Shown: positions 12,933 to 59,797 of the stretch, in pieces
Numbering within the stretch: the stretch's first letter is position 1
Layout: each line of letters begins with the position of its first letter
The notes under the pieces: model-generated
The model's input: only the letters and a program-made list of their open reading frames with translations
What the model was told of the DNA's origin: nothing
The model's database searches: none
Program-made: the position numbers and the translations under genes
Assembly (NCBI GenBank): GCA_947085115.1
Contig: CAMTVF010000009.1
Location: 51,787-115,786, forward strand
DNA length: 64,000 nt
Reading direction: 5' to 3'
Origin: an uncultured Opitutaceae bacterium
Lineage (GTDB): Bacteria; Verrucomicrobiota; Verrucomicrobiia; Opitutales; Opitutaceae

Positions 12933-12987
12933 GAGCCTCTCCCGAATCCGCACAAGCTTCACCCATCGCCCAAGCCGACACCTCCGC

Positions 12988-13080
12988 AGGTGGAGCGGGT
13001 TGACCCCAACACGCTTTTGCAGAGCGAACCCAACGCGTTGAGGTCAACGCGTTCCACCCCGAACCCAACGCGTTCCACCT
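12988..13080. repeat. REP-like inverted repeat pair, family B (GGTGGAACGCGTTGACCTCAACGCGTT)
   Basis: Degenerate left copy GGTGGAGCGGGTTGACCCCAACACGCTT; inverted right copy AACGCGTTGAGGTCAACGCGTTCCACC; tandem partial copy GAACCCAACGCGTTCCACCT. Confidence 0.75.
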
Positions 13081-13171
13081 CGGCAGCAGGTCGCGCCGCC
13101 AGAATCTCTGCGGACGGTTCCTGGCAATTCCCTGTCAGGCCACTGTCATGATTGCGCTGTTTCCCAGATCG

Positions 13172-13194
13172 CTTGTAACCTATTAGGTTACAAG
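13172..13194. repeat. AT-cored palindrome, copy 1 (CTTGTAACCTA-T-TAGGTTACAAG)
   Basis: Perfect 11-bp arms with a 1-nt centre. Confidence 0.85.
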
Positions 13195-13434
13195 TGGAGC
13201 CGCCACTCTCGCACGAGGAACAGCACACAGTCTTTGCGGCACGCCGACGAGCGGCGGCCCTATAGGGCTCCCCGGGGAAATCCTCCGCAGAAACGGCGCG
13301 TTGACCTCACTTACAATTGTCCCCGCGCCGGAAGGCTGGCCGCATTTGCTCGACACTCTCCCTCTGTATCCGGCAACCTCATGCGGCTTCGCAGCCCCCA
13401 AGGCGGCGGAGTCAGCCGAACTCTCCCAAGCCCG

Positions 13435-21275: not shown

Positions 21276-21965
21276 ATGAGTCTGATCAACGACGCGCTCA
21301 AGAAGGCCCAACGCGCACGGACCGGTGAAACCCTTGGGCCGGACGGCACACCCTTGCGCGTCGGAGGCGATGCTCACCACGGTGGCAGCGACCGACCGAC
21401 CTTGATCAGTTCTCAAACCGTTCTTCTCTCCGGAGGAATTCTCATCGTCCTTCTGATCGTTGCCGGCACACTTTACCTCGGTCTTGGCTCGGAATCCGCC
21501 CCGGTGCCCGCGAAGGCACCGCTTGCGAATGCCGCCGCACCGGCCACCGTCGCATCATTCCCGGTCCTTGCCGTCGCCGACCGCGGGCAGGCGGCGAAAC
21601 CGGCGGAATCTTTGACTTTTGTTCTGGCGACGCCAGATCCGACTGAGCCAAGTCTGCCCGCGGTTCCCACCGCGAGCGCCGCGCCTAACATCACCCTTCA
21701 GGTCGAATCTCCGCCCGTGCCCGTGGTCAATACCCTTCCCATGCTGCCCCCGATACCTTCCGAGCGCATGGTGCGAACCATTGAAGCCCTGCAGGTCAGT
21801 GGCATTCGCGCCCTCGGGGCCGACAGCAAAGTGCTTTTGAATGGACGTGTATATCGCATCGACGATCTCGTTGATCGCGATTTCGGACTGCGTCTCATCG
21901 AGGTCACGGCCGATTCACTCACGTTTAAGGACCAGACCGCCGCCGTCTATACGCGACGCTTCTAG
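21276..21965 (+). CDS. GspB/ExeB-like membrane protein
   Basis: MSLINDALKKAQ N-terminus typical of GspB-like proteins; TM; Pro/Ala linker; C-terminal KVLLNGRVYRIDD; follows exeA. Confidence 0.7.
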   Translation: MSLINDALKKAQRARTGETLGPDGTPLRVGGDAHHGGSDRPTLISSQTVLLSGGILIVLLIVAGTLYLGLGSESAPVPAKAPLANAAAPATVASFPVLAVADRGQAAKPAESLTFVLATPDPTEPSLPAVPTASAAPNITLQVESPPVPVVNTLPMLPPIPSERMVRTIEALQVSGIRALGADSKVLLNGRVYRIDDLVDRDFGLRLIEVTADSLTFKDQTAAVYTRRF

Positions 21966-22010
21966 TCAGCGTCCCGGACCCTCACTGCCGTCGCCGCCTC
22001 GATTCCCAGA

Positions 22011-22039
22011 GGGAATGACACGTAATAGGTGTCATTCCC
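22011..22039. repeat. AT-cored palindrome, copy 2 (GGGAATGACAC-GTAATAG-GTGTCATTCCC)
   Basis: Perfect 11-bp arms; the 19-bp core TGACACGTAATAGGTGTCA aligns with copy 1; lies between convergent genes. Confidence 0.75.
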
Positions 22040-22078
22040 GCCGGACTGCTTTTTTGCGCCGACCATCGCAAAGTGACA

Positions 22079-23503
22079 CTAGTAGGCCGACTTGGGCGGG
22101 AAGAAAATCTGCCAGCACGTTTTCAGGGCGATCTGCACATCAAGCCGGATCGACCACTTCGCGATGTAATCCAGATCGCGGCGCACCCGTTCCTGCAATT
22201 GCCCGGGCGTGGTGATCTCACCGCGAAAGCCTTCGCTCTGCGCCAGCCCGGTGATCCCTGGTTTGACGAAATGCCGCGTGCGATACGCGCGGGCCTGTCG
22301 CTCAAATTCCTCATCCAAGAGCGGCATGACGGGACGCGGGCCCACCACGCTCATCTCGCCGGTCAGCACATTCCAAAATTGCGGGAACTCATCGAGACTG
22401 TGGCGCCGCAGAAAATGCCCGAACGGGAAGATCCGGTTGTCTTCGCGCGTTGCCTGCACGCTCTCGGCACCGGCATCGGCCGGTGCCACGTGCATGGTGC
22501 GAAACTTGAGCATCTCGAAATGGCTGCGCCCACTGCGACCGCGCCGCCGCACATGAAACAACGGTCCGGGGGATTGCCAGCGTTGCGTCAGCCACACGAC
22601 CACGCAAAGCACCGGGAGCACCAGCACCACCATCGGCAGCGCGAGCAGCAGATCAAAGGTTCGCTTCATGACGCGATTGATCGGTTCCTCCAAGGGCTCC
22701 GCGTGCAAGGTGAAGCAGTGTTGACCCTGCAATTCCACCGAAGCAACCGGGTGACCCAGTTGTTCCGCGATGTCGTGCCGCAGCAGCACGCGCGCACCGT
22801 GAGCCTGGCAGACCTCGACGACCCGCCGCCCTGCCGTAGCGTCGGTGGCCAGTTCCCACAAGACGACTTGGCGAACCTGCCTCGCCTCGAGCAGTGCAGC
22901 GAGTTGCTCCACCGCGCCGAGCCAGGTGGCAATTGGCGGGTTCGAACCCGCGGGGAGCATTTCCCACGAAACAAACCCCGCCAGGTCCACGCCAAGATCC
23001 TTTCGCGCTGCCAGCCAAGCCTCCACTTCCCGCAGCGCGGCCACCCGGCAGACGATAAGCGTTGGCACCCGGGCGCTTCCTCCAAAAACGAGCGCCGCCA
23101 GATAGCTGGGCAGCTTCAAGTGCAACCCGAGCAAGAGCAGCCACGTGAACACCAGAAACGAACCGAGGAAGAGACGACTGATGCTGCGATCCTGGGTGGC
23201 AAACATCATCGCGAAGACCACAAGGGCGATGAGCGCAATCTGGCGTGACGCCAAACTGCTGGCGTCCACCATCGACAACTTCGAGAGGCGCCAGCCGATC
23301 TTCGCGACATGCTTCCACCCAAAGATCACGCCGAGCACGACACTGAGGAAATACGGCAACAGTGCTACGTCGCGCGTCAGTCGCATGAAGTGCGAAAAGA
23401 CAGCGATGGTGAGCTCCGCGTAGAGCCAGAAAAAGAATCCCACGAGCGCCAGCGTCAGGGCGTTGTGCAGGTCAGTAAGACCTCGGTGGCGGTTCAACAG
23501 CAT
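22079..23503 (-). CDS. Polyprenyl glycosylphosphotransferase (WcaJ/WbaP family)
   Basis: Four N-terminal TMs; KRTFDLL; LKFRTM; FLRRHSLDEFPQFWNVLTGEMSVVGPRP; VKPGITGLAQ. Confidence 0.92.
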   Translation of the reverse strand: MLLNRHRGLTDLHNALTLALVGFFFWLYAELTIAVFSHFMRLTRDVALLPYFLSVVLGVIFGWKHVAKIGWRLSKLSMVDASSLASRQIALIALVVFAMMFATQDRSISRLFLGSFLVFTWLLLLGLHLKLPSYLAALVFGGSARVPTLIVCRVAALREVEAWLAARKDLGVDLAGFVSWEMLPAGSNPPIATWLGAVEQLAALLEARQVRQVVLWELATDATAGRRVVEVCQAHGARVLLRHDIAEQLGHPVASVELQGQHCFTLHAEPLEEPINRVMKRTFDLLLALPMVVLVLPVLCVVVWLTQRWQSPGPLFHVRRRGRSGRSHFEMLKFRTMHVAPADAGAESVQATREDNRIFPFGHFLRRHSLDEFPQFWNVLTGEMSVVGPRPVMPLLDEEFERQARAYRTRHFVKPGITGLAQSEGFRGEITTPGQLQERVRRDLDYIAKWSIRLDVQIALKTCWQIFFPPKSAY

Positions 23504-25860: not shown

Positions 25861-26038
25861 GCTCCTCCACCTATCCCTGTTTGTAAGGTATTATGGGGCA
25901 GGTGACAGCAACCGTCGAACACCCCTGAGGCTAAAAAGTGGCAGGTCGGATGAGCGAGAAGCGGCTGGCTTTGAGGAGCGGTTGGTGGGTGGGATCGCGG
26001 CGGCGCAGGACTTCGAGGCGAAGACGCCCGGGGCTTCC

Positions 26039-55403: not shown

Positions 55404-55437
55404 TTTCCCGATCGAATCGCATTACGTTACAAACCCC

Positions 55438-57424: not shown

Positions 57425-59797
57425 ATGCCCATGCAATTTTCCTTCGAAACCAAGACGGCCAGTTTGAGCGTGGGCGATTTTGCGGAGTTTGCCCTTGGCC
57501 CGCGCGAAGGCGGCGGCGGTTCGTCGGGCTTGTGGCGCGCGCAACTGGGGCAGCATTGGCACAATGAATTGCGCCAGCAGATCGAGCACGAACTGGCGGC
57601 CAGCGGCACGAGCGCCACCACCGCCTCGTTCGAAATCGCCATTGCGGGCGAACTCAAGCACCGCGGTTGGACACTCACGCTCGGTGGCCGCATCGACCAG
57701 CTCGTCGGCACAACCCTCCGCGAAATCAAAACTGTCCTTCGTCCGCTCCCGCTCGAGGAGGCGGAACTGCGCGCCGACTACGGCAGTTATTTCCTCCAGC
57801 TCGCCACCTATGTGATCTTGCGCCGCATCCAGGGAGCGAAGGACACCCGCGCCGAGCTCGTCTTTGTCGAAGGCTCCTCCGGTCTCAGTCAGACGATCAC
57901 TCTCAATCCCTTCGACGAGGCGCTGGTTCACCACCAACTCGACGCCGTGGTCAAGTTTCTGGAGTTGCAGCGCCATGCTGCGGAGCGCCGCCATGCTCTC
58001 CGTTTCCACGCGCCCTTCGAAACGCTGCGCCCCGGGCAGGAGAACATTCAGGCCGAACTGAACGCCGCCTTCGCGCACGACCCGATCGTGCTCTTCGAAG
58101 CCCCGACCGGTTACGGCAAGACCGGTTGCGTGCTCGAGTTCGCGCTCGCGAGTTTGCAGAGTGGCCGCTTCGACCGCCTCATCTGGTTGACCGGCAAATC
58201 CACCGGCCAGCTGCAAGTGGTCGAGACCTTGCGTCGCATGACCACACCGCCGCAATGCAACCTATTAGGTGACAAAGCCGGTTGGACGCCGGTGGCGTTA
58301 TGGCAGGTGCGCAACAAGCGCGAACATTGCGTTAACGACGTGTTCCACTGCGTGCGCGATGGCTGCGACTATCTCGCCGGGGCGCCGGAACGGTGGCCGC
58401 AAAGCGGACTGTCCCGCTTCTATCTCGACGACGCGCCCGTTCGCGACATCGGCACCTTGCGCTCGGCCGGACGCGAGTCGCGCATCTGCCCTTACGAGAT
58501 CACCCGAACTTCACTCGCGTTCAACGACGTGTGGATTGGCGATTTTAACTACGTCTTCGCCCCTGAGAATCGCGGACTCTTCTTCGACCAACCAGGCTTT
58601 GATCCCGCGCGCACCCTCCTCGTCATCGACGAGGCGCACAACCTGCCCTCGCGCGTGGCCGATGCCTTCTCGCACGTGGCGGGCGATCAGGAAATCCGCG
58701 CCTTGCTCGTCGAACTCGACCATCAGCGCGCCCCCGCGCCCCTCGTTCTCGCGGTCGAAGTCTGGGCGCGCGTGCTCGGCAGCATCGAGCCGTGCGAAGT
58801 GCTCGACGGCGCTCGCGAGGCCGACGTGCGCGACGCCCTCGCGCGATTGGCCGAGCTCGTGTCCGTGACGCCCCTCGACCATGCCGCGCTCGGCCCCCAC
58901 CACAGCGAAACCCTGTGGAACTTCGCGAGGCTGCACGAGTTCCTCGACGACCTGCACCTGCACCGCCTGCTCTGGAGTCAACGAACGGGCACGCTGGAGT
59001 TCACGTGCATCGACGCCGCCGATGCGATTGGCGAAACGCTGCGCCGTTTCGGCGGTGCGCTGCTTATGTCCGCGACGCTGGCGCCGTTCGATCAATTCGC
59101 GCTGGCGTGCGGACACTCACGCTACACCCCGGTGCGCGCCGTCACGCCGTGGCGCGGTGGTGCTTACGACGTCGCTGTTGATCTGCGAATTTCGACGACC
59201 TTTCGCGAACGGGCGAACCACTACGGCACCACGGCCGAAACGATCGGAGCCCTGCACGCTTCGGCCGGCCGGGCCATCGCGGTGTTTTTTCCGTCCTATG
59301 CCTACGCCGAGGCGGCGTTGCGCGCGCTGGATCACCATGGCTCCGTCCTGCGCGCCACGCTCCAACCGAAGTTGCCGGATCTCGCGGCGCAAGCCGCGTG
59401 GGTCGAAGAGACGCTGGCGCTTGCCGACGCGCTCTTTCTCGTGCTGGGCAGCAGCTTTGCCGAAAGCATTGATCTGCTCGGCGGACGCGTCTCGCACGCG
59501 ATGGTGGTGGGCCCGGCCTTGCCCGAGGTGAACGCCGTGCAGAAAACGCGCACGGCCACCCTCAGCTCACTGGGGCGCGAAGCGGCGTTTCGCCGCGTTT
59601 ATCAGATCCCCGGGCTGCAAAAGGTGAATCAGGCGCTGGGCCGCCTCGTGCGCAGCCCCGGTCATCGCGCCAAGGTGCTGCTGCATTGCCGGCGCTTCGC
59701 GGAGTCAAATTACGCGAGCCTGCTCGACCCGGAATGCCAGCAATACCGCGAGATCACCACGACCGCCGAACTGCGCGAGTGGCTTGCGTCCCCTTAG
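57425..59797 (+). CDS. DinG/XPD-family Fe-S helicase with N-terminal PD-(D/E)XK nuclease-like domain
   Basis: GRIDQL...REIKT nuclease motif; LRPGQ; EAPTGYGKT; four Cys (EHC, FHC, GC, ICPY); DEAHN; MSAT; FFPSY; QALGRLVR. Confidence 0.9.
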   Translation: MPMQFSFETKTASLSVGDFAEFALGPREGGGGSSGLWRAQLGQHWHNELRQQIEHELAASGTSATTASFEIAIAGELKHRGWTLTLGGRIDQLVGTTLREIKTVLRPLPLEEAELRADYGSYFLQLATYVILRRIQGAKDTRAELVFVEGSSGLSQTITLNPFDEALVHHQLDAVVKFLELQRHAAERRHALRFHAPFETLRPGQENIQAELNAAFAHDPIVLFEAPTGYGKTGCVLEFALASLQSGRFDRLIWLTGKSTGQLQVVETLRRMTTPPQCNLLGDKAGWTPVALWQVRNKREHCVNDVFHCVRDGCDYLAGAPERWPQSGLSRFYLDDAPVRDIGTLRSAGRESRICPYEITRTSLAFNDVWIGDFNYVFAPENRGLFFDQPGFDPARTLLVIDEAHNLPSRVADAFSHVAGDQEIRALLVELDHQRAPAPLVLAVEVWARVLGSIEPCEVLDGAREADVRDALARLAELVSVTPLDHAALGPHHSETLWNFARLHEFLDDLHLHRLLWSQRTGTLEFTCIDAADAIGETLRRFGGALLMSATLAPFDQFALACGHSRYTPVRAVTPWRGGAYDVAVDLRISTTFRERANHYGTTAETIGALHASAGRAIAVFFPSYAYAEAALRALDHHGSVLRATLQPKLPDLAAQAAWVEETLALADALFLVLGSSFAESIDLLGGRVSHAMVVGPALPEVNAVQKTRTATLSSLGREAAFRRVYQIPGLQKVNQALGRLVRSPGHRAKVLLHCRRFAESNYASLLDPECQQYREITTTAELREWLASP
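58256..58274. repeat. AT-cored palindrome, copy 3, in frame inside the helicase gene
   Basis: TGCAACCTATTAGGTGACA, read as TGC AAC CTA TTA GGT GAC (CNLLGD). Confidence 0.75.

Follow-up and report, generated by a model that had tools for sequence, protein, structure and literature searches.

Repetitive extragenic palindromic (REP)-like repeats are common, and to our knowledge the only partner proteins known for them are HUH transposases, the REP-associated tyrosine transposases (RAYTs). REP or REPIN populations and their RAYT gene together make up REPtrons (Nunvar, 2010, PMC2817692; Bertels and Rainey, 2011, PMC3116915). In Opitutus terrae, GC-rich GTAG REPs of the RAYT super-family lie within genes, including helicase genes and uvrA (Di Nocera et al., 2013, PMC3733652), and the same paper cites the Rickettsia palindromic element (RPE) of Rickettsia conorii as being 100–150 bp long. 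We describe here a different palindrome from the same bacterial family. The DNA analysed (the window) is a stretch of 64,000 nucleotides from an uncultured Opitutaceae bacterium, at positions 51787-115786 of contig C9 (CAMTVF010000009.1) of an assembly, here genome G000, that comprises 2.36 Mb in 140 contigs (70% complete, 62% GC). A singlet 19-bp palindrome, TGCAACCTATTAGGTGACA (58256..58274, forward strand), lies in frame in a gene for a DinG/XPD-like helicase of 790 aa (57425..59797, forward strand; domains Helicase_C_2 and DEAD_2). On balance we favour the reading that this palindrome is a member of a REP/REPIN-like family of repeats tied to a cognate putative helix-turn-helix (HTH) binder.

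The likeness to REP/REPIN–RAYT systems extends to several levels. In both, short palindromes are dispersed above chance and form inverted doublets with conserved spacing, a low-copy gene is bracketed by its own palindrome variant, several gene/repeat families share a genome, and the master gene is vertically inherited at a syntenic locus, which here adjoins dus (the gene for tRNA-dihydrouridine synthase). Unlike REP/REPIN–RAYT systems, however, the bracketed gene encodes a predicted XRE-like HTH protein of 115–122 aa and not a Y1/HUH transposase (PF01797); the palindromes are perfect and AT-centred, with arms such as TGTAACC, TGACACG and TTGCGC and no GTAG or CGTC tag; and they number tens rather than hundreds, many of them intragenic. 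No account of an AT-centred palindrome family that brackets an HTH gene turned up in a full-text literature search.

The original prediction, made from the sequence of the window, was of three dispersed 19-mers, and all three are present (at 13174, 22016 and 58256); shuffling the window 100 times with dinucleotide composition preserved produced no match to their consensus, TGNNACSTAWTAGGTNNCA. We define the family as a 7-nt arm, TAWTA and the complementary arm, and a relaxed form of this pattern finds 33 sites in G000. In a census open to any arm sequence, 38 of the 445 TAWTA pentamers of the genome (8.5%) were flanked by 7-nt arms that complemented each other with no more than one mismatch, whereas seven control cores lay between complementary arms in 0.1–0.4% of cases; G000 thus has 33–38 copies in 2.36 Mb, where about none would be expected by chance. 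All but one of the 38 belong to two arm classes, TGTAACC…GGTTACA (about 26) and TGACAC(G/T)…CGTGTCA (about 11). The helicase copy has a left arm of the TGTAACC type with one T>C change and a right arm of the GGTGACA type, and differs at two positions from the canonical 19-mer, TGTAACCTAWTAGGTTACA. Two further proposed relics, at 25882-25907 and 55421-55431, are too degenerate to be told from chance, and the sites at 13174 and 22016 are not free-standing 19-mers but the centres of a 121-bp repeat, discussed below. The window contains no Rfam family at gathering thresholds and no tRNA gene.

The exact 19-mer is present in 13 genomes from nine genera, out of 151 sampled across the family, and the reversed pattern, used as a control, gave no match in any genome scanned. 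The proposal of a sequence-specific, genome-wide element is therefore upheld by strong over-representation in G000 and in at least nine genera of the family. Within the genus, copies of the exact 19-mer number 33 in G014, 26 in G013, 23 in G000, 16 in G024, 12 in G002, 11 in G018, six in G021 and none in G016. In G014 (99% complete) they are arranged as 10 doublets and 13 singlets, a doublet being two palindromes with opposite centre base; the period is mostly 54 bp there and sometimes 45 or 66 bp, takes values of 45 and 66–67 bp in G002 and G021, and ranges from 45 to 69 bp among congeners overall. G000 has one doublet (C111:9775/9831). Singlets measure 19–25 bp and doublets 64–88 bp. The balance of variants differs between sister genomes (33 copies of the T…A type and three of the R…Y type in G014, 12 and about 29 in G002), a matter of proportions and not of all or none. 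G016 has no copy of either type, its helicase site is decayed, and its dus locus is not assembled. DNA uptake sequences, which are non-palindromic 9–12-mers present in hundreds to thousands of copies, are unlike these tens of perfect 19-bp palindromes.

In G000, G009, G013 and G014, an open reading frame (ORF) of 115–118 aa next to dus, in conserved synteny, is enclosed by two palindromes that abut its start and stop codons. The original prediction had recommended a search for a binder, and this small gene is our candidate: its product probably recognises the palindrome. G000 has three paralogues, each situated between inverted copies of its own arm class at 0–25 bp from the start and stop codons. 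The bracket at C111:9419-9772 is of the TGTAACC type, that on C117 consists of two copies of TGACACGTAWTACGTGTCA (TGACACG type), and that on C1 is the inverted pair TTGCGCTTAATA…CAACAA (TTGCGC type); each class is also found elsewhere in G000 (about 26, 11 and 4 copies). Across 15 genomes of several genera, brackets were found at about 30 of 45 paralogues, in more than 15 arm variants around a nearly constant TAWTA centre (the variant directly after the G002 gene is AGTAACCTAATAGGTTACT). The HTH family is multi-copy, is present in 70 of the 151 family genomes, and in large databases is restricted to Verrucomicrobiota and annotated only as hypothetical. The protein is encoded in 12 of the 13 genomes that contain the exact 19-mer, versus 58 of the 138 that do not (Fisher p = 6e-4, uncorrected for kinship), and in G004 the synteny block at dus is kept and the small gene and the palindrome are both absent.

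The small protein gave no match above cut-off to any curated Pfam or NCBIfam family. Sub-threshold leads were to HTH_3, HigA and YdaS; the best Pfam match was to HTH_3 (17.0 bits versus a cut-off of 23, for the G009 orthologue only), and HigA scored 15 versus 47.7. An AlphaFold (AF2) model built from 29 homologues (mean predicted local distance difference test score, pLDDT, 84.5) has five helices: a long N-terminal helix is followed by a linker with an invariant RPG..TP.WN motif and by four helices (residues 51-63, 69-77, 81-89 and 97-111), which include a predicted C-terminal HTH at residues 69-89. Foldseek returned weak matches (E >= 0.27, TM 0.3–0.6), nearly all of the XRE type (HigA, C-controller proteins, ImmR, CylR2 and HipB), and no catalytic fold was seen in the model or in these matches. 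Structure prediction supports dimerisation: the homodimer had an ipSAE of 0.69 versus 0.10 for the best control, with agreement between runs of at least 56% of contacts and a partner pLDDT of at least 64, a mark reached by 20 of 30 solved homodimers and by one of 23 monomers, and invariant residues of the TPxWN and PDAE…L motifs make up the predicted interface. Residues of the putative recognition helix track arm class (kinship not being controlled): PRQR-x-D goes with arms TGT(A/C)AC(C/G), PRQR-x-A/S with TGACACG and TGTCACT, (S/P)RQR-H-(E/Q) with TGTCAT(T/A), and a 'PSR/PAR' clade with GC-type arms.

As a predicted small dimeric XRE-type HTH protein with a candidate operator at its own gene, the protein resembles Cro/CI, HigA and the controller (C) proteins of restriction–modification systems, and the palindrome is of odd length (9-1-9), as in tetO and the lambda operators. 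Unlike those regulators, it has an extra N-terminal helix and the TPxWN/PDAE dimer motifs, its presumed sites are genome-wide and intragenic, and no toxin, restriction–modification or phage partner adjoins its gene.

The helicase gene gives the fullest view of how copies come and go. Position 58256 is, as had been claimed, the first base of codon 278, and codons 278-284 read C-N-L-L-G-D-(K). The leucine codons that the palindrome imposes are indeed rare (CTA accounts for 1.1% and TTA for 0.6% of leucine codons in 653 long high-GC3 ORFs of G000), and codon 280 is the sole CTA of the gene. The site was also correctly placed in a loop before the Fe-S domain: it falls in a hypervariable loop ahead of the Cys-rich region (…WQVRNKREHC VNDVFHC VRDGC), and in 23 orthologues the loop varies from 32 to 159 aa between the anchors STGQLQVV and RNKxEHC. 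At exactly the position of the insert, these orthologues show empty, filled and decayed states, and not a CNLLGDK peptide conserved with ordinary codons and no palindrome. Ten are empty, with 32–34 residues (e.g. MTAAPGDLAFW); G014, G024 and G013 have in-frame doublets (CNLIGYN…CNLLGYN); G002 has a variant doublet, made up of the perfect palindrome AGTAACC…GGTTACT and of GGTAACCCAATAGGTTACC, with differently ended arms; G019, G005 and G020 have two to four decayed copies; G000 has the singlet CNLLGDK; and its sister G016 has a decayed singlet of equal length (DHPGGNT). The states are dispersed over a tree of the remainder of the helicase protein; for example, G021 and G188, both empty, nest among the filled G013, G002 and G014.

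The TGTAACC-type left arm of the G000 copy, and its GGTGACA right arm followed by AAG, are the outer halves of copies 1 and 2, respectively, of the G024 doublet. Recombination between the two palindromes of a doublet would remove a multiple of three bases and so give a hybrid-arm singlet with the frame kept. Because the arms are hybrid and such a deletion would be in frame, the sequences make it most likely that the G000 copy is a collapsed doublet. The insert probably lengthens the loop in front of the Fe-S domain by about 12 residues, and its effect on the helicase is probably neutral. In metagenome contigs from public samples, the window's strain retains the palindrome, another sequence takes the place of the loop in related organisms sampled with it, and neither excision nor insertion variants of the helicase palindrome were seen. 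As a separate observation on this gene, an N-terminal extension of about 190 aa (window 57425-57900) has a weak AddA-nuclease-like match (TIGR02784, E = 0.004, residues 64-151) and may be a fused PD-(D/E)xK-type domain.

The palindrome has a single stop-free frame, the same on both strands, which encodes the peptide C-N-L-L/I-G-Y. At least six G014 loci lie in this frame inside long ORFs, namely those for the helicase, a RumA-like methyltransferase, Fmt (in the linker before the C-terminal domain), a HAD-type ATPase, an epimerase and a UvrA-like ABC protein. A second in-frame copy in G000 (C31:6745-6763, AGTAACC-type on the coding strand, peptide SNLIGYK) belongs to a gene for a protein of 569 aa, where it falls in the linker that joins an exosortase EpsH domain to a DUF3485 domain. 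The claim that the element can add peptide to proteins is thus supported by in-frame copies in several genes, with empty and filled alleles in the helicase, RumA-like and UvrA-like genes. Ten orthologues of the RumA-like gene are empty (…IHEKVGDLKLHF…), and five other genomes have doublets at the same codon: G014 (TGTAACC, period 54 bp), G002 (RGTAACC, 66 bp), G021 (TGTAACR, 54 bp), G188 (TGTAACG, 69 bp) and G006 (GGTAACC, 66 bp), with no evident similarity among the five spacers. The UvrA-like gene is filled in G014 and empty in its sister G002, 18 nt of target being replaced by 6 + 73 + 11 nt. The G014 host of this doublet (C4:270374-274045) is open for about 2,000 aa; a further ABC ATPase module (Walker A) directly follows the linker in which the doublet lies, an arrangement that recalls the REP-interrupted uvrA genes of O. 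terrae (PMC3733652). A candidate target motif, GGCGAC|CT, is read by the empty helicase and RumA-like alleles (n = 2) and not by the empty UvrA-like allele; the agreement (window 58250-58256, and the RumA-like gene) is probably a coincidence of common Gly-Asp codons.

These in-frame copies share with the O. terrae REPs and the RPE the property of being palindromic repeats that are read through. The O. terrae REPs are likewise singlets and dimers that add 7–30 residues, often in DNA-repair genes (helicases, uvrA), but they encode peptides such as VGPALAAG and GTGVPPV, and NLLGY and NLIGY are absent from the table of PMC3733652. Like the RPE as cited there, the palindrome inserts in frame into ORFs that stay open and that have orthologues without the insert (helicase, RumA-like and UvrA-like); in size the two differ.

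A different pattern is seen in the Fmt and HAD ATPase genes, in which most species have a copy at the same codon, either as an intact palindrome of some class or as a decayed remnant; these copies are old. In Fmt, with identical flanks, the class is TGTAACC in G014, TGTCACC in G002 and TGTAACG in G021. Possible sources of such symmetric switches at one orthologous site are re-insertion into old copies, conversion from other copies and selection on each site. It is here that an ordinary regulon comes to mind, in which the HTH protein would be an autoregulated transcription factor and the palindromes its selected operators, the intragenic copies being roadblocks or incidental and the 121-bp element having merely spread an operator. 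Such a regulon would suit the persistence of perfect palindromes at these codons while the arm class switches symmetrically between species, the perfect conservation of the 19-mer across at least nine genera and the presence of an operator-like site at the start codon of the gene that encodes the protein; dimers of XRE-type proteins, moreover, typically bind odd-length palindromes. It accords poorly with the frequent presence/absence differences that close relatives show within housekeeping genes, with doublets that have unrelated spacers at one site, with copies in loops of unrelated enzymes and not upstream of a coherent gene set, with several paralogues that each have a private population, and with the free decay of copies in some lineages. 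We therefore regard a regulon of this kind as unlikely.

Most of the G000 copies have more than 100 bp of flanking sequence in common, and BLAST and iterated nhmmer searches defined a 121-bp unit with about 25 copies in that genome. The unit matches its own full length on both strands and is therefore one long imperfect palindrome. An alignment of the 25 copies shows 17-bp terminal inverted repeats (CTAGTATTACTCTGTGA … TCACAAAGTAATACTAG) and places the 19-mer at the exact centre; the unit has no coding capacity, and most copies have CTAG at both flanks. As CTAG is self-palindromic, a TA duplication cannot be told from an extension of the terminal inverted repeats. Canonical copies form an end-to-end hairpin (-41 to -53 kcal/mol, z -3.4 to -4.8). 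CTAG/TA ends are products of IS630-family elements, and the unit resembles miniature inverted-repeat transposable elements (MITEs) of the IS630/Tc1-mariner type, such as the Correia elements, in its terminal inverted repeats, its CTAG (TA) on both sides, its copy number, its end-to-end fold and its want of an ORF. What is unlike those MITEs is that its exact centre is a binding-site-like palindrome of another system. This MITE carries most of the palindrome copies in G000. It was not found in the congeners searched, where matches were limited to the central 19–25 bp.

Two of the three window sites are centres of MITE copies. One is a diverged full-length copy (13121..13240, forward strand; nhmmer match C9:64907-65026), which is intergenic, has the central palindrome TGTAACCTATTAGGTTACA (13174-13192) and folds more weakly (z -1.7). 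The other is old and degenerate (21962..22083, forward strand; nhmmer match C9:73781-73869, alignment row C9_73748_73869); its centre, TGACACGTAATAGGTGTCA (22016-22034), is of the second arm class and is extended by GGGAA/TTCCC. A number of MITE copies are found on very short contigs or no more than about 250 bp from a contig end (C85:46-166, C115:1-96, C110, C46 and C137), so the MITE probably breaks the G000 assembly and its copy number is a lower bound. Another short repeat, with partly inverted units like GAACCCAACGCGTT, is found just upstream of the first of these copies (window 12980-13090); part of it (12988-13071) matches dozens of places in G002, G016, G001 and G007 and represents a separate dispersed repeat family of the genus.

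The MITE brings into consideration an unrelated enzyme (a RAYT/HUH transposase, an IS630-type DDE transposase or a recombinase) as the mover of the palindromes, with the HTH gene as a passenger or a favoured target that chances to lie between two copies. Most G000 copies owe their spread to a MITE that ends in CTAG/TA, G000 has two transposase loci of the IS630 family (DDE_3; C42:49881-50984 and C138:13466-13774), RAYT genes occur in G014, G013, G021, G141 and G083, and no catalytic fold is seen in the HTH protein. But the intact C42 ORF (367 aa, stop to stop) was rejected as a partner, the ends of the DDE_3 element being unrelated to the MITE termini, and nearly all matches to those termini in G000 are inside MITE copies, save two weak single matches. 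No Y1_Tnp (PF01797) gene was found in G000, which is 70% complete, and six RAYT loci in relatives have GC-rich hairpins and no TAWTA palindrome; for these reasons a RAYT is unlikely to be the mobiliser. Nor would a passenger gene account for the tight arm-specific bracket of each paralogue across genera, or for the recognition helix that tracks it, and the doublets and singlets of relatives are without terminal inverted repeats or target-site duplications. An unrelated enzyme thus seems to us a quite improbable explanation of the whole.

The original prediction had also raised a role in chromosome organisation; here a small nucleoid-associated protein of the HTH type would bind sites resembling matS (the MatP target) or parS. 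A genome has tens of copies, the predicted small dimeric binder adjoins a conserved housekeeping gene (dus), and 13 of the 16 palindrome loci on the 3.6-Mb contig C1 of G014 are in its second half (1.88–3.44 Mb), where they surround the bracketed gene (2.434 Mb). This clustering could be a matter of local spread or a macrodomain effect; dnaA of G014 is on a different contig from most of the sites. The protein has no similarity to MatP or ParB, however, and genomes have several paralogues with different sites, copy number differs several-fold between sister species, and sites are gained and lost inside genes, all of which make this possibility a very slim one.

We return to the reading favoured at the outset, that of a repeat family with a cognate HTH protein. 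Short, AT-centred perfect palindromes are scattered as singlets and inverted doublets and come and go at orthologous sites, those inside genes surviving only in the stop-free frame and only in tolerant loops or linkers. The HTH protein would bind its cognate palindrome as a dimer, and protein and repeat population would, by analogy, persist together as RAYTs do with REPINs. In G000 the immediate vehicle was the MITE, with ends typical of IS630-like targets. The original prediction offered a choice between a mobile palindrome and a binding site, and the data suggest both.

Several points weigh against this reading. No transposase, nuclease or recombinase tied to the repeats was found, and no autonomous partner for the MITE was found in G000 (70% complete). 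The HTH assignment is itself a prediction, from a sub-threshold Pfam match (17 bits vs 23) and from Foldseek E values no better than 0.27; about one-third of the 45 paralogues showed no clear bracket in the automatic scan; and the co-occurrence and covariation tests are confounded by kinship. At the UvrA-like filled/empty pair, the youngest, there is no target-site duplication and the flanks are untidy. Finally, the intact palindromes kept at the same codon in Fmt and HAD ATPase genes could equally be explained by selection on each site as a functional operator.

A further step, which we put forward only tentatively, is that a non-catalytic dimeric HTH protein maintains its cognate palindromes, perhaps by directing copying or gene conversion onto related sites. 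Maintenance of this kind would account for the different symmetric arm classes at one codon in sister species, and for decay where the matching gene was not found (as in G016, in which the dus locus is unassembled). The repeats would then be neither classical transposons nor a classical regulon.

Beyond the repeat family itself, the analysis brings to light the MITE vehicle in G000, the series of orthologues compared in five genes, the singlet with hybrid arms, the unequal variant proportions of sister genomes and the predicted dimer interface. In practical terms, the palindromes and the MITE probably break assemblies, and the AT-rich in-frame segments may be mistaken for frameshifts or regulatory sites. 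For the Opitutaceae, the picture is of repeat populations each tied to a tiny putative HTH protein without a catalytic domain and repeatedly written into loops of essential enzymes. If it is true that the protein binds the repeats and helps to maintain them, this would provide a new model for the persistence and diversification of short palindromes, together with a naturally occurring collection of orthogonal protein/operator pairs, in more than 15 arm variants, and a means by which peptides are inserted into proteins.

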